Shown: positions 17,586 through 63,650, numbered from the stretch's first letter. The stretch is DNA of 64,000 nt from an uncultured Bacteroidales bacterium (GCA_900539915.1 UQDU01000007.1:5264-69263), one strand, 5' to 3'. Numbers and translations: made by a program. The notes: a model not told the origin generated them from the letters alone.

Positions 17586-17662
17586 TGGTCGGGGTGACTA
17601 GACTCGAACTAGCGACCTCACGCCCCCCAGACGCGTACTCTAACCAACTGAGCTACACCCCG
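17586..17662 (-). tRNA. tRNA-Pro (anticodon GGG)
   Basis: The reverse complement folds as a cloverleaf: acceptor CGGGGTG/CACCCCG, D-arm GCTCAGTTGGTTAGAGT, anticodon loop CTGGGGG, T-arm GCTAG-TTCGAGT-CTAGT, discriminator A, and an encoded CCA. Confidence 0.8.
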
Positions 17663-40200: not shown

Positions 40201-40250
40201 AGGCCCGGCATGCCGGTGACATGTAGCTGACATGCCGGGCCTTAGATTAT
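40201..40250 (+). terminator. GC-rich hairpin downstream of the very large gene
   Basis: AGGCCCGGCATGCCGG-loop-CATGCCGGGCCT. The T-tract is weak, as is usual in Bacteroidetes. Confidence 0.45.
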
Positions 40251-40261
40251 ATGATATGTAT

Positions 40262-40453
40262 GTAGGGCCGCGGTCCGCAGCAATGTCACTAACATAAGGA
40301 ATACGCTCATTGTGCAGTAGGGACATGCCATGGCATGTCTGCTAACGCAATACTCTTCAATAGCATGGCTTTAGGCGACATGCCATGGCATGTCCCTACT
40401 ACCTGACAACGCTATTCAGGCTTTAACGACTGCTTAAGTTAGTCACATTACTG
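40262..40453. repeat. composite palindromic MITE/REP-like element (family A core GTAGGGACATGCCATGGCATGTC in inverted pair, plus family B module)
   Basis: GTAGGGACATGCCATGGCATGTC (40317-40339) and its inverse GACATGCCATGGCATGTCCCTAC (40377-40399) flank a 37-bp spacer. Flanking CAATGTCACTAACATAAGGAAT and GACTGCTTAAGTTAGTCACATT modules recur elsewhere. Confidence 0.8.
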
Positions 40454-40694
40454 TCCGCAGCGGCCATCGCTCCCGAAAAATATTTAACACGATAAGAAAA
40501 AATACAGTTGATAAGTTTAGTAATATAGTTTGTTCATTAGCACAGAAAGTTAAATATTTCCAACCCCGTCGGCGGAGGATTCCCAACTCCGCCGGCACTA
40601 ACTCCCGGCGCGGGGGCTGTCGTGATGACAGCCCCCGCGTTGCGTTGGTGGGGAGTCTTTATAAGATTTCCGCGATTTCCGCGTTATAATTATA

Positions 40695-43600
40695 ATGCGT
40701 ACTCCGTGTAGACATCCCGTTATCGCCGCCATGGCTGTCATCGCCGTGACGGGCATCGTCGCGCTCCTGTCGGGATGCTCCCTTAAGAAAAACACGGCGG
40801 CCACGCGCCACTACATGGCGTTTATCACGCGCTACAATGTCTATTACAACGGTGACGAGCACTATAAATACACCCTCCACGAGCAGGAGACGTCATATAA
40901 GGATGACCTCTCGCGCACGCTCTACCTCTCGCCCATAGAGGCCAAGGCCGACCCCAAGGCTCCGCAGCCCTCGGGCAGCTTCCAGCGGAGCATCGACAAG
41001 GCTGCCAAGGCCATACAGATACGCTCCATCAAGCGCAAGCCCAAGAAGCAGCCCGGCAAGTCATATGACGAGGCTTACAAGGAGTGGATGCGCCGCTCGG
41101 AGTACAACCCCTTCCTCCACAATGCGTGGATGCTGATGGGGCGTTCGCAGTATCACAACGGCGATTTCACCGGCGCGGCTGCGACTTTCTACTACATATC
41201 CAAAAACTTCCGCTGGCTCCCCGATGTGGTCACCGAGGCGAAGCTGTGGCAGGCACGTGCCTACCTCGCCGACGACTGGACCTACGAGGCCGACATGATT
41301 ATCTCGCGCATCAAGCCGGAGCAGCTTGTCACCAAGACGCTCCGCCGCCTCTATGCCTTCGACTATGCCGACCTCTATATCCGCACAGGCCGCTACGCTG
41401 AGGCGGTGCCCCACCTGCAGACGCTCATCTCCCTGAGCGATGCCCACCAGCGCATGCGCCTCAACTATCTCTTGGGGCAGCTACTGACGCGCCTCGACCG
41501 CCGCGAGGAGGCCTACAAGGCTTTCGGGCGTGCCGGCCGCTCGGCTTCGGCTGACTATGCCATGCAGTTCAACTCTCGCATACGCCAGAGCGAGGTGTAT
41601 CAGGGCGACAACATAGCCCCCGAGGTCAAGGCCCTGCGGCGCATGGTGCGCTACGACCGCAATGCCGAGTATCTCGACCAGGTGTATTACGCCATAGGCA
41701 ACCTCTACCTGAGCCGCCGCGACACCACGGAGGCGATAGCCAACTACCGCCTCGCCGTCAGCAAGAGCACGCGCTCGGGCTATGACAAGGCTCTGGCAAA
41801 TCTGGCTCTGGGCAACCTCTACTTCGACCTACACCGCTATGACCTGGCGCAGCCCTGCATAGCCGAGGCAGTGCCGCAGCTCCCCGAGGATTTCCCGGGA
41901 CTTGACTCCATACGCATGCGCAGCGATGTGCTCGACGAGCTGTCGACCTACGCCCAGAACGTCCACCTCCAGGACTCCCTGCTGGCTCTCGCCGCCCTCA
42001 GCCCCGAGGAGCAGAGGGCGGTGTGTGAGCGCATGGCCCGCGAGTATGCGGACCGCCAGAAGGAGGAGGAGCAGCGCATACAGCGCGAGGCGCAGCGTGC
42101 CGAGCAGGAGGCCAACCAGCCCGTGGTGGCCCCCGACGACAATGTGGCCAACATACAGCGCATCAACACCGACGATTCGTGGTACTTCTACAATCCCACC
42201 TCGGTGGCGCAGGGCAAGAAGCAGTTCCAGCGTCTGTGGGGTGCGCGCCGCAACGAGGACAACTGGCGACGCCGCAACAAGAGCGACTTCTCCATGTCGG
42301 ACTTCGACCGCCCCGACGGCGAAGATGATGATAACGCAGAAGATGGGATGAACCCCGGTGAATCCGCTCCCGATGGCGAGGGCAATGACGAAACCGGCTC
42401 TGACGCTCTCCCCCTCACCGACGACCCCACCAACGCCGAATACTACCTCAAGGACATACCGCAGACCGACCTCGAGAAGGCTCAGGCTGCCGACATAGTC
42501 CAGGAAGGACTCTATAACATGGGTCTCATACTCAAGGACAAACTCGGCGACTCACACGCGGCCATGGAGGAGTTTGACGACCTGATGAAGCGTTTCCCCG
42601 ACAATATATACCGCCTTGACGTCTACTACAACATCTACCTGATGATGGTACATGACGGCGACATGGCCGCTGCCGAGCGTTACCGCCAGCGCATCCTCGC
42701 GGAGTTTCCCGAGAGCCAGCTCGGCCAGGCGATGCGTAACCCCGACTATCTGGAGAATCTAAAGGCTATGGATGCGCGTCAGGAGCAGCTCTATGAGCAG
42801 ACATGGCAAGCCTATCTTGACAACCGCAACGGCGAGGTGCAGGAGGCCTGCCGCACCATGCAGCGCGACTTCCCGTTGAGCAAGATCATGCCCAAGTTCA
42901 TGTTTCTGGACGCTCTGACCTATGTCACGGAAAACAAGCCGGAGGAATTTACGGCGCGTCTGCGCGAACTGCTTGAAAAGTACCCCGACACCGACCTGAC
43001 CCCCATGGCGAGTGCCTATCTCAAGGGTATGGCATCGGGGCGCAAGCTCCATCAGGCGGCTACCAACGTGCGCGGCATGCTCTGGAACACGCGCCTGATT
43101 TCTACCGGCGACACCACCACCGTCGACCTTGACGCGCCTCTCAAGGTGACCCTTGACCCCTCCGCGCCGCAGCTGATGGTGTATCTTTATCCGCTTGACC
43201 GCGTGAATCCGGCGGCTCTGCTCTACGAGGTGGCGCGATTCAACTTCTCCACCTTCGCGGTGCGTGACTACGACCTGGAGCAGATGACATTCGGGCCGCT
43301 CGGGGTGACCATAGTCAAGGGTTTCGCCAATGCGCGTGACCTCGAGCGTTACCGCGCCGCCATGGAGCGGTCACGGTTCCGTCTGCCGCAGTCAGTGCGT
43401 CCCGTGGTCATCAGCGAGGCCAACTTTGACACCCTCCTCAAGGAGGGACGCTCCTTTGAGGAGTATTTCGCTGCCGTAGGCGAGCAAGCCATCGACTTCA
43501 CCCATGAAGCCGTCCTCCCCTCCGCCTCAGATTACCCCTCCGCCCCCGAGATGTACGATGCCTACACCCCCAAGGAGCCGATAGCGACCACCCCCGGGAC

Positions 43601-44072
43601 CGCTCCCGAACCCGTTCCCGGGACAGCCACCCAACCTGTAGGGACGCACCCCGGTGCGTCCGCCCCCGAGCAGCAAGGAGCGACCCCCACGGAACCACAA
43701 ACCCCCGAAACCGCCCAGGAAGCATTCGAACGCATCTTTGACGCCATCCCCCTGACACCGCCCTCCCCAAAAGCAGAGCCGACCCCTGTAGGGACGCACC
43801 CCGGTGCGTCCGCTCCCGTCCAGGAGATGCCCGAGCCGACCCCCGAAGCAGAGCCACCGCTGGCTCCCAAAACAAAGGAGCCGACCCCCGAGGAGCTCCC
43901 GACCCCTGACACGCATACTCCGCAATCACTCCCGACCATCTTCGACGAGGACCCGGATTATTCCGAGCCCGTAGCCCCGGGCTTCCTCCCCACGCGCCCA
44001 GGAGTCAAGGTCCCGATAGCCGTCCCTGACATCCCCGAAGGCACCGAAGGTGACGACGAAGAGGAATACTGA
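40695..44072 (+). CDS. TPR-repeat lipoprotein, SprE/PorW-like (candidate T9SS component), with Pro/Thr/Glu-rich acidic C-terminal tail
   Basis: 1125 aa with a lipoprotein signal (LLSGCS). The N-terminus HYMAFITRYNVYYNG resembles the start of the SprE/PorW family. There are multiple TPR-like repeats, and the tail of about 190 aa is low-complexity. Confidence 0.5.
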   Translation: MRTPCRHPVIAAMAVIAVTGIVALLSGCSLKKNTAATRHYMAFITRYNVYYNGDEHYKYTLHEQETSYKDDLSRTLYLSPIEAKADPKAPQPSGSFQRSIDKAAKAIQIRSIKRKPKKQPGKSYDEAYKEWMRRSEYNPFLHNAWMLMGRSQYHNGDFTGAAATFYYISKNFRWLPDVVTEAKLWQARAYLADDWTYEADMIISRIKPEQLVTKTLRRLYAFDYADLYIRTGRYAEAVPHLQTLISLSDAHQRMRLNYLLGQLLTRLDRREEAYKAFGRAGRSASADYAMQFNSRIRQSEVYQGDNIAPEVKALRRMVRYDRNAEYLDQVYYAIGNLYLSRRDTTEAIANYRLAVSKSTRSGYDKALANLALGNLYFDLHRYDLAQPCIAEAVPQLPEDFPGLDSIRMRSDVLDELSTYAQNVHLQDSLLALAALSPEEQRAVCERMAREYADRQKEEEQRIQREAQRAEQEANQPVVAPDDNVANIQRINTDDSWYFYNPTSVAQGKKQFQRLWGARRNEDNWRRRNKSDFSMSDFDRPDGEDDDNAEDGMNPGESAPDGEGNDETGSDALPLTDDPTNAEYYLKDIPQTDLEKAQAADIVQEGLYNMGLILKDKLGDSHAAMEEFDDLMKRFPDNIYRLDVYYNIYLMMVHDGDMAAAERYRQRILAEFPESQLGQAMRNPDYLENLKAMDARQEQLYEQTWQAYLDNRNGEVQEACRTMQRDFPLSKIMPKFMFLDALTYVTENKPEEFTARLRELLEKYPDTDLTPMASAYLKGMASGRKLHQAATNVRGMLWNTRLISTGDTTTVDLDAPLKVTLDPSAPQLMVYLYPLDRVNPAALLYEVARFNFSTFAVRDYDLEQMTFGPLGVTIVKGFANARDLERYRAAMERSRFRLPQSVRPVVISEANFDTLLKEGRSFEEYFAAVGEQAIDFTHEAVLPSASDYPSAPEMYDAYTPKEPIATTPGTAPEPVPGTATQPVGTHPGASAPEQQGATPTEPQTPETAQEAFERIFDAIPLTPPSPKAEPTPVGTHPGASAPVQEMPEPTPEAEPPLAPKTKEPTPEELPTPDTHTPQSLPTIFDEDPDYSEPVAPGFLPTRPGVKVPIAVPDIPEGTEGDDEEEY

Positions 44073-44079
44073 GATACAA

Positions 44080-44166
44080 TTTCGTATAAATCGTATAAGT
44101 CGGATAAGTCTTATAAATCTTATAAGAAATTATACGACTTATAAGAATTATAAGACTTATCCGACC
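44080..44166. repeat. CTTATAAG-type tandem repeat array (family C), about 8 units
   Basis: TTTCGTATAAATCGTATAAGTCGGATAAGTCTTATAAATCTTATAAGAAATTATACGACTTATAAGAATTATAAGACTTATCCGACC, directly after the stop of the TPR lipoprotein gene. Confidence 0.75.
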
Positions 44167-44171
44167 TGTCC

Positions 44172-44395
44172 CAATGTCACTAACTTAATCAGTCGTTAAT
44201 GCTTGACTGGGGTTCTTATGTAGTAGGGACATGCCATGGCATGTCGCCTAAAGTCATGCTAATGAGAGTGTTGCGTCAGCAGACATGCCATGGCATGTCC
44301 CTACTACGATGTATGCATTCCTTAAGTGAACAGCATTGTGGCATGTCCCTACTACGATGTGTACATTCCTTATGTTAGTGACATTGCGACCTGTC
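44172..44395. repeat. composite palindromic MITE/REP-like element cluster (family A inverted pair plus a third half-copy, and family B modules)
   Basis: GTAGTAGGGACATGCCATGGCATGTC...GACATGCCATGGCATGTCCCTACTAC...GGCATGTCCCTACTAC, with CAATGTCACTAACTTAATCAGTCGTTAA and CATTCCTTATGTTAGTGACATTG modules. The cluster lies between convergent genes. Confidence 0.8.
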
Positions 44396-44411
44396 GCTGC
44401 CCTCAAGCCAG

Positions 44412-46322: not shown

Positions 46323-46350
46323 AATCGTAAGAGGGTTTTATAGGGTGTGG

Positions 46351-46372
46351 GGGGACATGCCTCGGCATGTCC
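46351..46372. repeat. short variant family-A palindrome GGGACATGCCTCGGCATGTCC
   Basis: Near-perfect palindrome in the 58-bp spacer between the GT2 stop and the nadE start. Confidence 0.6.
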
Positions 46373-46380
46373 GCGAGGGG

Positions 46381-47394
46381 TCAGTCGAGTTTGCTGAACT
46401 CCCTGACTCCGTGTAGATAATAGTCGGTGAGTATGTTGCGCCGTCCCCACGGCAGCGAGGACAGCAGATTAGTCTCGGGGGACTTCACATCGCGGTAATG
46501 CTCACGTGCCATGCGGCGGAAATCGCGGTGCGCCCCGATGATGGCCGAGGCATTGCGGAAATCGAGTGTGAGCATGAATTTTGCCCAGGCGAGTGTGTCA
46601 AGCAGACGGCGGCGCAGCAGGAAACCGCGTCGCTCGCGTCGCGGCAGATTCTTGTAGAGCATCAGCAGCGAATTGCGGAAATTGAGGTAGGTCTTGCGTG
46701 GCGATGATGCCGGCAGACTCCCTCCGCCGAGATGGTAGACGGTGGCCTGCGGCACGGCGGCAATGGCGTAGCCCATAGATTTCAACCGCCAGCAGAGGTC
46801 TATCTCCTCCATGTGGGCGAAGAAACGGCCATCCAGGCCTCCGGCATCGAGAAATGCCTGGGTCCTGACCATCAGGGCCGCCCCCGTGGCCCAGAAAATC
46901 TCCATGACGGAGTCATACTGGCCGTGGTCGGTCTCCACGGTGTCAAAGATGCGTCCGCGGCAGTAGGGGTAGCCGTTGCGGTCAAGGAAGCCACCGGCTG
47001 CGCCGGCATACTCGAATTTCGTCGGGTCGGCCACGCTCAGTATCTTGGGCTGCACCGCCGCTAAGTGGGGATGCGTCTCCATGTAGCGGTAGAGAGGGGT
47101 CAGCCAGTCGTCCTTGACCTCGACATCGCTGTTGAGGAGCACCGTGTATCGGCTTCCGGCGCGGCGTATGGCCTCGTTGTAGCCCTCGGCATATCCGAGA
47201 TTGCGGTCAAAGCGGAGCACCCTGACCGACGGGAACTCCTCGGCGAGCACTTCGAGCGAGTCGTCGGTGCTGCCGTTGTCGGCCACGATGATGTCGGCTG
47301 TCTCCGCCGGAGTGTGGCGCACCACGCTCGGCAGATAGCGGCGCAGCAGCTCGGAGCCGTTCCAGTTGAGTATTATGACTGCTACAGGTTTCAT
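46381..47394 (-). CDS. family 2 glycosyltransferase
   Basis: The start is taken at MKPVAVIILNWNG, which gives ATGA coupling with the upstream gene. GT-A fold with a DxD motif (ADNGSTDDS) and VLLNSD. Confidence 0.8.
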   Translation of the reverse strand: MKPVAVIILNWNGSELLRRYLPSVVRHTPAETADIIVADNGSTDDSLEVLAEEFPSVRVLRFDRNLGYAEGYNEAIRRAGSRYTVLLNSDVEVKDDWLTPLYRYMETHPHLAAVQPKILSVADPTKFEYAGAAGGFLDRNGYPYCRGRIFDTVETDHGQYDSVMEIFWATGAALMVRTQAFLDAGGLDGRFFAHMEEIDLCWRLKSMGYAIAAVPQATVYHLGGGSLPASSPRKTYLNFRNSLLMLYKNLPRRERRGFLLRRRLLDTLAWAKFMLTLDFRNASAIIGAHRDFRRMAREHYRDVKSPETNLLSSLPWGRRNILTDYYLHGVREFSKLD

Positions 47395-52375: not shown

Positions 52376-52765
52376 CTTGCGATGCGGATTGAGGCGGTCG
52401 GCTCTCTTTAGGCTCGAGTGTCGGATGACTGTATTATATAGCGAGAGGGCACCGGAGCTGGTTGCCAGTCCGATGCCCTCTGTGTAGCTACCACACCAAA
52501 GGATGCGATGAAACTCCGAATGACAGGATTTGAGTGCTCGCCGTCCTTTGTAATCCTCCGTGGCCCTGAGGCCAACCCTTGTGGGTGAGGCCCGCCATTG
52601 GGCGGTTACGCTTTGTCTCGGTATTTCAGAAAAATTTGATGAGTTTCCCAATCTACTTTGATGTGGCGTTTATCTTGATAACACAAAGATATGCGTTTTG
52701 GTTGAATTATCCAATTTTTGGATGAAAAAACATCTGAAAAGCTGCGGTTTCGGCTGTCAGAGGTG

Positions 52766-62999: not shown

Positions 63000-63061
63000 A
63001 TCAGGCGGCCGCCGCCACGTTGTGTGACTCCGCATAAAAGTTAGTAACTTTGCACCACAGA

Positions 63062-63182
63062 TTGCAGGGACATGCCATGGCACAATGTCACTAACTTAAG
63101 CAGTCGTTGACACTTGAATGGCATGTCCCTACTGCGATGTGTACATTCCTTAAGTTAATGGCATTGTGCCATGGCATGTCGC
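63062..63182. repeat. composite palindromic MITE/REP-like element (families A and B)
   Basis: GGGACATGCCATGGCA-CAATGTCACTAACTTAAGCAGTCGTTGA...GGCATGTCCCTACTGCGATGTGTACATTCCTTAAGTTAATGGCATTGTGCCATGGCATGTC. Confidence 0.8.
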
Positions 63183-63268
63183 ACAAGGCCTGTGCGTCAT
63201 GATATATTCTGCGCATGGAAATTGTCTCTGCAATCATATACGCAATAACTGACATATGATTAACAACG

Positions 63269-63502
63269 ATGAGTGAGGACGAACTGACGGAGATTATCGA
63301 CGGGGCGCAGGTTTGCGGCCCGGAGCTGGCTGCGGCCTATGTGGAGCGCGGACGGCTCAGGTGGAAGCGCGGCGACATGCGCGGTGCGCTCGGTGATTAC
63401 AATTCGGCGGCTGAGCTTGACCCCGACGGCCCGGGGGCTGAGCTGGCGGCACATACTGTGGAGATTCTCAATTTCTACAACACAGACCTCTATAATCCCT
63501 GA
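63269..63502 (+). CDS. hypothetical small protein with a single TPR-like motif (77 aa)
   Basis: RGRLRWKRGDMRGALGDYNSAAELDP fits the TPR consensus. The gene is bracketed on both sides by repeat elements. Confidence 0.4.
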   Translation: MSEDELTEIIDGAQVCGPELAAAYVERGRLRWKRGDMRGALGDYNSAAELDPDGPGAELAAHTVEILNFYNTDLYNP

Positions 63503-63510
63503 TTCATAGA

Positions 63511-63650
63511 TACATGGCGATGCCATGACACAGTGCCGTTAACTTAAGCAGTCTTTAATGGCATCTCCCTACTACATAATAACGCAACTCCTTAAGTTAG
63601 TGACAGTCATGCCGCGGCATGTCCCTGTGTGGGATGTGCCGCGGCATGGG
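63511..63650. repeat. degenerate composite palindromic repeat element (families A and B)
   Basis: CGTTAACTTAAGCAGTCTTTAATGGCATCTCCCTACTAC...CTCCTTAAGTTAGTGACAGTCATGCCGCGGCATGTCCCTG...GTGCCGCGGCATGGG. Confidence 0.65.

Follow-up and report, generated by a model that had tools for sequence, protein, structure and literature searches.

Repetitive extragenic palindromes (REPs) headed by GTAG, and the REP doublets forming hairpins (REPINs), consist of a 5′ GTAG followed by a short G+C-rich palindrome; they are present in high copy number, lie mostly between genes, are enriched between convergent genes and are frequently arranged as inverted doublets (Di Nocera et al. 2013, PMC3733652; Bertels & Rainey 2011, PMC3116915). 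The sections of the 2013 survey that deal with such repeats also report that several sequence families of one genome can have the head in common, and that in-frame intragenic copies occur occasionally, sometimes two per open reading frame (ORF). As a family, the repeats described below are like them in these respects, the high copy number being seen in genomes other than the window's own. We analysed a 64,000-nucleotide stretch of an uncultured Bacteroidales bacterium (GCA_900539915.1 UQDU01000007.1:5264-69263; "the window" hereafter, at its full length), in which two identical 24-nt palindromes, and a decayed third one, lie in frame inside porW, the gene of a type IX secretion system (T9SS) lipoprotein. 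The units are probably copies of GTAG-headed, REP-type repeats, normally intergenic in Bacteroidales, that persist inside the porW coding sequence as near-neutral passengers.

Translated palindromes are also known from Rickettsia, whose palindromic elements, as cited in the same survey (PMC3733652), are selfish repeats lying in frame inside ORFs, at structurally tolerant places, and belong to a family that is also intergenic. The porW units share these traits. They differ from the Rickettsia elements by their length of 24-29 nt, by their confinement to long disordered linkers of one protein, and by the turnover of several families. RPE-1, for instance, measures about 100-150 bp, and its sequence is unrelated to the PorW units. 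As for the host protein, it can be compared with SprE of Flavobacterium johnsoniae (PDB 8GL8; Lauber et al. 2024, PMC10994853), in which T9SS function was not detectably affected when the centre of the Finger Region (E445-T550) was exchanged for a (GS)10 stuffer, nor when the C-terminal tail (F759-P870) was removed. Both proteins have an internal acidic segment, unresolved or of low confidence, and a long C-terminal tail, neither of which is conserved, and the units of the window PorW sit exactly in these parts. Unlike SprE, the window PorW has an extra folded domain (aa ~810-930) before the tail, and conserved islands within it (ERIFDAIPLTPP and the last ~45 aa); dispensability of the two regions was established in Flavobacterium, not in the window organism. 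The kind of event is therefore already known, since intragenic GTAG and CGTC REPs, sometimes two per ORF, and Rickettsia palindromic elements are established (PMC3733652). What is new is the existence of GTAG-REP families in Bacteroidales, the PorW host, the mapping of the units to regions predicted to be disordered, whose counterparts in the Flavobacterium homologue proved dispensable by experiment, and a resolved series of gain, decay, turnover and deletion.

The features of the host gene are as follows.

40695..44072, plus strand: porW, encoding PorW/SprE, a periplasmic T9SS lipoprotein of 1125 aa whose lipoprotein signal reads …LLSGC
43638..43661, plus strand: tail unit 1, GTAG followed by GGACGCACC-CC-GGTGCGTCC, in frame as VGTHPGAS, aa 982-989, within an extended identical stretch at 43635-43663
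43788..43811, plus strand: tail unit 2, the identical 24-mer, in frame, aa 1032-1039, within an extended identical stretch at 43785-43813
42342..42367, plus strand: GATGGGATGAACCCCGGTGAATCCGC, a third unit, decayed, within the internal acidic linker; translated as DGMNPGESA (about aa 550-558) in the same frame as the tail units
43719..43763, plus strand: conserved tail island, EAFERIFDAIPLTPP, between the two tail units

An earlier note on this DNA had labelled the host a TPR (tetratricopeptide repeat) lipoprotein. The label stands and can be refined: the protein has TPR Pfam matches, a lipobox, and a match to the NCBIfam equivalog NF052312 (T9SS_PorW_SprE) of 634.6 bits over aa 22-773, well above the cut-off of 250, all of which make it a PorW. 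In a phmmer comparison it matched the solved F. johnsoniae SprE chain, 8gl8_I, with an E value of 6e-32 over aa 24-810. The nearest named PorW homologues were those of Duncaniella and Muribaculaceae, at 51-53% identity, so that within the Bacteroidales the organism is probably one of the Muribaculaceae.

The 24-mer GTAGGGACGCACCCCGGTGCGTCC was found exactly twice in the window, both times on the plus strand and with a period of 150 nt; no further match was detected in the 64 kb when up to 3 mismatches were allowed (0 expected, 100 shuffles). Its arms, 9 nt each, are perfectly complementary around a CC centre and preceded directly by GTAG, and each copy is translated in frame 0 of the ORF as PVGTHPGASAP, so that the earlier note was right on the positions, on the palindrome and on the peptide. 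It had also placed the copies in identical contexts of roughly 34 nt. A repeated context does exist, of a different size: 29 nt are common to both copies (CCTGTAGGGACGCACCCCGGTGCGTCCGC, that is CCT, the unit and GC), and a longer stretch of 39 nt is identical at 36 positions (92%). The predicted peptides spanning the units read …TQPVGTHPGASAPEQQ… and …PTPVGTHPGASAPVQE…. Folding of the RNA, a check suggested in the note, gave for each unit a hairpin of −15 kcal/mol with an 8-bp stem and a 4-nt loop. In the minimum free energy structure of the whole 341-nt tail both palindromes pair together; the ensemble was diffuse (frequency 0.0001, z −2) and nothing was drawn from it. A terminator and promoter scan of the tail gave no match coinciding with the units. 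The tail units had no match in Rfam 15 either, and the intergenic doublets near porW only sub-threshold matches to generic long hairpins (microRNA precursors).

Outside the units, in-register identity between the two copies was 22% upstream and 36% downstream, versus a background of 32.5 +/− 6% for random in-frame pairs of the tail. Since the flanks are unrelated beyond the unit edges, we concluded that the tail contains two discrete units, and not the ends of a duplicated segment. A segmental or tandem duplication of 150 nt of low-complexity coding DNA was rejected on the same ground, the likeness stopping at the unit edges instead of extending across the period. Assemblies from ENA, Logan and NCBI supplied 34 near-identical cluster representatives in which the units are present, which means that the sequence is real.

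A pattern scan for GTAGGGACGCACCNNGGTGCGTCC over one genome per prokaryotic species returned at least 163 copies in at least 120 stretches. Among the matches listed, almost all stretches came from Bacteroidales isolates or metagenome-assembled genomes (MAGs), labelled Muribaculaceae, Duncaniella, 'Prevotella', 'Bacteroides', Mediterranea or Caecibacteroides, and single MAGs contributed dozens of them (for example JAGAON, labelled Prevotella sp., and JAAVDT, labelled Bacteroides sp.). The extended consensus of these listed matches is T at −1 (82%), GTAG, GGACGCACC-NN-GGTGCGTCC, then G (81%) and C (52%), with a 2-nt centre that is genome-specific (TT, CT, AT, CC, AC and others). The coding copies of the window fit this consensus, T-GTAG…GTCC-GC, exactly. 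In the same set, 146 of the 163 copies (~90%) lay outside ORFs of 200 aa or more, and at least 30 head-out doublets, plus then minus, were spaced by 44-110 nt. A GTAG head, a short palindrome, dispersed extragenic copies and inverted doublets are the anatomy of GTAG-type REPs and REPINs. Nearly all credible coding copies used the frame GTA GGG, which yields small, polar and proline residues. The earlier note had named, as the sign of an ancient coding sequence, a unit carried by distant orthologues with no kin between genes; the coding unit instead matches, exactly and over its full length, a dispersed family whose copies are mostly extragenic, and the one distant PorW that has the same unit (L111, below) carries it in a tail that cannot be aligned. 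At least five stem families of a GTAG-headed REP superfamily are abundant in gut Bacteroidales, apparently in Muribaculaceae. Literature searches by sequence string returned unrelated primer and aptamer matches only, and no description of the GTAG-headed repeat was found in the literature searched.

Compared with the published GTAG REPs, the units in porW differ in several ways. Their host belongs to the Bacteroidales (apparently Muribaculaceae); in the passages of the survey that were consulted, Bacteroidetes are named only among the CGTC-type phyla, and not in the GTAG passage. The intragenic GTAG and CGTC REPs it describes, often dimers encoding 20-30 aa, reside mainly in DNA repair and replication genes, and not in a secretion-system lipoprotein (PMC3733652). 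In addition, the porW copies are direct singletons within a gene, and not extragenic doublets.

A homologue search returned 34 cluster representatives at 95-100% identity to the window PorW (species S1) and one relative each at 87% (S2), 82% (S3), 79% (S4) and 78% (S5), and the DNA of each was fetched. For the families, we call B the one to which the coding units of the window belong, and A the one that flanks porW between genes. No GTAG-hairpin unit was found in the porW genes of S4 and S5. That of S3 has one A-like unit, in another frame. In S2, porW contains seven units, six perfect and one with a mutated head, which belong to three families, lie in both orientations and are all in frame. 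Three are perfect units of a type C (GTAGGGTCGCGACctGTCGCGACC; GTAGGGTCGCGAC…), of which one lies in the acidic linker, at the spot corresponding to the linker unit of the window, and the other two lie in the tail. Type B is represented by one perfect unit (…ACGTACC…, …ACGTACCgtGGTACGTCC) and by a second whose head has changed to ATAG, and type A by two perfect minus-strand units. The flanks of this gene carry ~16 A-type units, as doublets, in 23 kb. Comparison of orthologues, also proposed in the earlier note, therefore revealed a unit that is absent at 78-79% identity and is replaced or accompanied by other families at 87% and 82%. Together with the dispersed family, this patchy presence supports the suggestion made there, that intergenic palindromes were captured, or are expanding, in a low-complexity coding tail.

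The peptides encoded differ with the family (VGTHPGAS, VGSRPVAT, VGTYRGTS, DMPGHVPT). As they are unrelated, the conserved entity is the DNA palindrome and not a protein motif, and a function at the peptide level, as a common motif or an O-glycosylation site, was rejected. Orthology of individual units between S1 and S2 was also considered, either with the C-type (flanked in both species as CCT-unit-GCC CCx GAG) or with the B-type (one compensated pair apart), and was not retained, the linkers being too divergent to decide. One arrangement in the S2 tail (L121 12889-13201) is without explanation so far: the order A(−), B(+), C(+) is found on both sides of the ERIFDAIPLTPP (ERIFD) island, with units that are identical or nearly so (loop and head changes only) and spacers that are unrelated.

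Within S1, the third unit, at 42342-42367, is the only further site in the window that resembles the 26-nt unit when up to 7 mismatches are allowed. The window allele has 6 mismatches and no stable fold (z +0.57), and this decayed, non-folding state is that of most strains. Two strains retain better forms: the linker allele of L207/P0013 (GTAGGGATGCACCccGGTGCATCC) is perfectly palindromic and differs from the tail units by a single compensated pair (C·G to T·A), and that of L126/P0020 (GCAGGGACGGACCCCGGTGCTTCC) has 3 mismatches. Two tail units are present in 33 of the 34 S1 proteins, and 4 of the 67 tail units have a single stem-breaking substitution (VGTNPGAS, VGTHRGAS, VGTHPDAS, VGTYPGAS). 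The last protein (P0022/L122) has a single tail unit: exactly 150 nt (50 codons) between the copies are gone, and the 5′ flank of copy 1 is joined to the 3′ flank of copy 2. Such a junction is what recombination or slippage between direct repeats would be expected to leave. The S1 tail is hypervariable by slippage separately from the REP units. Past unit 2 (~43812-43925), the strain proteins P0001-P0034 differ by in-frame indels between short direct repeats GAGCCGACCCC (43776, 43833, 43878), some alleles lacking for example EAEPPLAPKTKEPTPEELPTP.

To locate the units on the protein, an AlphaFold2 model of the window PorW was built with 18 orthologues. The TPR core was modelled with confidence, and all three units fell in segments with a predicted local distance difference test (pLDDT) score below 50: the linker unit in 527-571, tail unit 1 in 953-1005 and tail unit 2 in 1017-1125. 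In SprE, the acidic linker has its aligned counterpart at residues ~527-560, which border the unresolved centre of the Finger Region. The PorW tails of the clade align at islands only, ERIFDAIPLTPP and the last ~45 residues, and the units occupy the variable linkers that flank the first conserved island. That island is present in all five species of the clade; the island region (aa 1007-1016) is predicted as a short helix.

These observations suggest the following course of events. REP unit copies would enter the porW coding sequence and be read through in frame, mobilised by a single-strand transposition of the RAYT (REP-associated tyrosine transposase, or TnpA_REP) type, or copied by template switching or gene conversion. 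They would persist because they are confined to the two intrinsically disordered parts of PorW, namely the C-terminal tail and the middle of the Finger insertion, neither of which SprE of F. johnsoniae needs for its function; because only one of the six frames of the unit holds a stop codon (the xxG TAG frame), the other five being stop-free; and because the frame used, GTA GGG …, gives a bland V-G-T-x-P-G-A-S that matches a P/T/E/A-rich linker. We infer a filter by which units survive only in disordered, dispensable segments and benign frames. The PorW protein would then be made with the unit-encoded peptides, which would be neutral. Once resident, units would gather point mutations as near-neutral passengers, as the linker copy and the rare strain variants suggest, and directly repeated units would act as substrates for the in-frame deletion of the sequence between them.

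A second lineage carries the same unit. The PorW of L111 ('Bacteroidales bacterium M3'; 1069 aa, 696.6 bits for NF052312) is 50% identical to that of the window and its tail cannot be aligned; at aa 975 it carries the identical unit, read in the same frame as NVGTHPGASAT, and it has another one, GTAGGGACGCGGCGTGACGCGTCT, from a further family whose units in S2 lie between genes. L127, a close relative of L111, has the first unit only. The L111 lineage acquired its unit independently. In 80 further PorW relatives from metagenomes (45-56% identity), 78 were without a perfect GTAG-hairpin unit, and a clear unit was seen in L127 alone; the near-identical loci L161 and L162 have in their tail an 8-bp GTAG-headed palindrome that may be due to chance. 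The flanks of these 80 loci were REP-poor, with one perfect unit in 317 kb. Since the relatives free of units are also poor in REPs around the gene, the presence of units in porW tracks REP-rich lineages.

Several observations weigh against the course of events proposed above. Scans for RAYT/TnpA_REP motifs ([NDE]HxH … Yxxx[PQ]/YxxNP) in all ORFs of the window and of 126 loci, ~0.98 Mb in total, yielded spurious shadow ORFs only and no credible candidate, so that neither the mobilising enzyme nor the linked RAYT gene of published systems was found there. RAYTs, HUH-Y1 transposases whose genes usually have the repeats on their flanks, are typically single-copy in a genome, and one may therefore lie outside these 0.98 Mb. 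TnpA_REP subclasses 2.4 and 2.6 have been reported in Bacteroidetes (PMC6006769). In the 64 kb visible of the window's own genome, the B-type unit occurs inside PorW only; neither B nor C was seen between genes in these 64 kb or in 23 kb of the sister genome S2, where the intergenic units are of family A and of a further GTAGGGACGCGGC… type, and activity of the B family in the window genome is for that reason unproven. Moreover, units at different PorW sites of one genome are of the same family, and sister species differ by the family or by a compensated stem variant. A one-off insertion followed by neutral decay is insufficient to account for this; short-patch conversion, hairpin-templated correction and repeated insertion from a pool that itself changes are the processes suggested by the pattern. 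No empty-site allele was found within the species that would define the insertion boundaries or a target-site signature. Among strains, the units look better conserved than their flanks (8 indel variants upstream, 7 downstream), which could hint at constraint. Finally, the deletion allele comes from one contig of 6x coverage and has lost the conserved island, so that it needs confirmation and may be an assembly error or a defective variant.

How the copies multiplied bears on the first of the alternatives, in which a unit entered the gene once and the others arose by in-gene duplication or short-patch gene conversion, and not by separate insertions from the genomic pool. The family sharing within each PorW (B at three sites in S1), the order A(−), B(+), C(+) repeated around the island in S2, the 29 identical nt of the tail copies with their CCT…GC flanks, and the similar flanks of the two L111 units would all be accounted for in this way. 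The shared T…GC flanks belong however to the family consensus anyway, and past the unit the flanks are unrelated, at or below background, as are the S2 spacers; a recent segmental duplication is thus excluded, and conversion tracts would have to be confined to about 30 nt. We consider in-gene copying unlikely, and it would alter only how the copies multiplied, not their identity. Another idea is that the disordered regions of PorW are sites of active REP turnover in situ, the units at corresponding coding positions being overwritten by the family current in the genome, through a RAYT or through hairpin-templated conversion. This would explain both the agreement of the sites within a genome and the differences between sister species, in family or in compensated stem pairs, and if it were true, a REP-processing activity would routinely edit an essential gene and produce heritable variation of tail length and sequence in a cell-envelope machine; we give it a rather small chance.

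The conservation of the units among strains could also mean that the hairpins are selected elements of the porW mRNA or DNA, acting for example in translation pausing, in protection of the upstream mRNA from 3′ exonucleases, as a gyrase or IHF-type DNA site, or as a programmed recombination hinge that varies tail length. Each hairpin is stable, at about −15 kcal/mol, and across the 34 strain variants the units hardly change, in contrast to the linkers around them, which differ by indels; where stems differ, the change is compensated, both in L207 (C·G to T·A) and between S1 (GCACC) and S2 (GTACC); and REPs have elsewhere in bacteria been proposed to be RNA elements (PMC3733652). Yet the units are absent from S4 and S5, where the gene is otherwise conserved, and from 78 of the 80 other PorW relatives; there is free variation in how many units are present, in their family and orientation, and in where they lie; the mutations seen in strains disrupt the stem without compensation, and in the linker the majority allele no longer folds. 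Compensated changes, moreover, can come about in one step by intrastrand template switching (quasipalindrome mutagenesis). Such a function is, in our view, very improbable. As to an ancient coding sequence with a coincidental palindrome, or an assembly artefact, the tail is indeed of low complexity and rich in G+C and proline, and shuffled 36-nt contexts fold at −10 kcal/mol on average. Against this stand a 24/24 match, found twice, to a unit with at least 163 copies elsewhere, the 0 matches in shuffles, the absence from the S4 and S5 orthologues and the presence in dozens of independent assemblies, which together refute both and leave them next to no probability.

Read as near-neutral REP-type passengers, the porW units offer a natural series for the fate of such repeats when they land in genes, from strains to sister species to a second lineage, with decay, compensated stem changes, family replacement and repeat-mediated deletion recorded in the units themselves. 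Their survival in PorW tracks protein disorder, as units were found only in its two predicted-disordered regions. In practice, intragenic 24-nt palindromes can mislead the annotation of repeats and genes, strain typing and assembly, and in protein databases a REP insertion is marked by peptides of the PVGTHPGAS type.

Family-A units (GTAGGGACATGCCATGGCATGTC.) flank porW on either side as inverted doublets.

40317..40399, no strand: upstream of porW, an inverted doublet of family A in which GTAGGGACATGCCATGGCATGTC. faces its own reverse complement, inside a composite of ~200 nt at 40250-40475
44220..44307, no strand: family-A inverted doublet in the convergent spacer between PorW and NadE, with 26-nt perfect arms and a 36-nt spacer (44223-44304 when delimited by the family-A units), inside a composite at 44155-44400

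The downstream doublet folds at −59.2 kcal/mol (z −10.6). The earlier note had seen a likeness between the coding unit and these intergenic elements. Family A is real and shares the ends of the unit, but the unit is not derived from the local family A: the two families have only the GTAGGGAC head and the GTCC foot in common, and the coding unit (stem GCACC) belongs to family B, a sister of family A (stem ATGCC). REP-type units occupy the convergent PorW-NadE spacer in S1 (the window), S2, S3 and S4, the short S5 contig being outside the scan.

The two composites that bracket porW are homologous, ~200 nt long and of opposite orientation, and partial copies of them lie at 63040-63200 and 63480-63640. 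Each consists of a family-A inverted doublet and conserved outer segments (AATGTSACTAACTTAA…CAGTCGTTAA… / …ATTCCTTAAGTTAGTGACATTG), and the downstream one has 27-nt outer inverted arms (44162-44188 / 44370-44396). The composite looks like an element of the MITE (miniature inverted-repeat transposable element) or REPIN type, larger than a REP doublet. Directly past the porW stop, at 44077-44186, lies an AT-rich array of 9-nt periodicity with 7 ATAAGTCTT-like copies. With arms of 49 nt that are 78% complementary, the array also forms a long, imperfect palindrome; the convergent porW and nadE may share it as a bidirectional terminator, or it may be another type of repeat. A headless family-A-like hairpin without GTAG, GGACATGCCTCGGCATGTCC, was noticed at 46353-46372 just past the nadE start codon, in the spacer 46323-46400. 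Elsewhere in the window, a Bacteroidales-1 (6S-like) RNA was found on the minus strand at 52483-52668 (125 bits), on the basis of which the window was assigned to Bacteroidales, and a tRNA at 17589-17662, also on the minus strand.

Units in frame were also observed in other coding hosts. At L087 7456-7479 (contig JAIPGU010000003), a B-type unit lies inside GlmS, read as VGTHHGAS between …NGIFENYEAWKKKL and VKFKSETDTEV…; this host is a conserved enzyme and not a disordered tail, and the label of the contig, Candidatus Gracilibacteria, looks odd for a Bacteroidales repeat. In Mediterranea massiliensis, two loci of one genome (L063 7114-7235 and L066 7099-7232) carry an in-frame inverted doublet of units (VGTHHGAS … ADAPWCVPT), with a D/A/N-rich linker between them, in a protein of ~780 aa without NCBIfam match. 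One exact copy at L039 3479-3502, from an uncultured Bacteroides MAG, has a context homologous to that of the Mediterranea loci.

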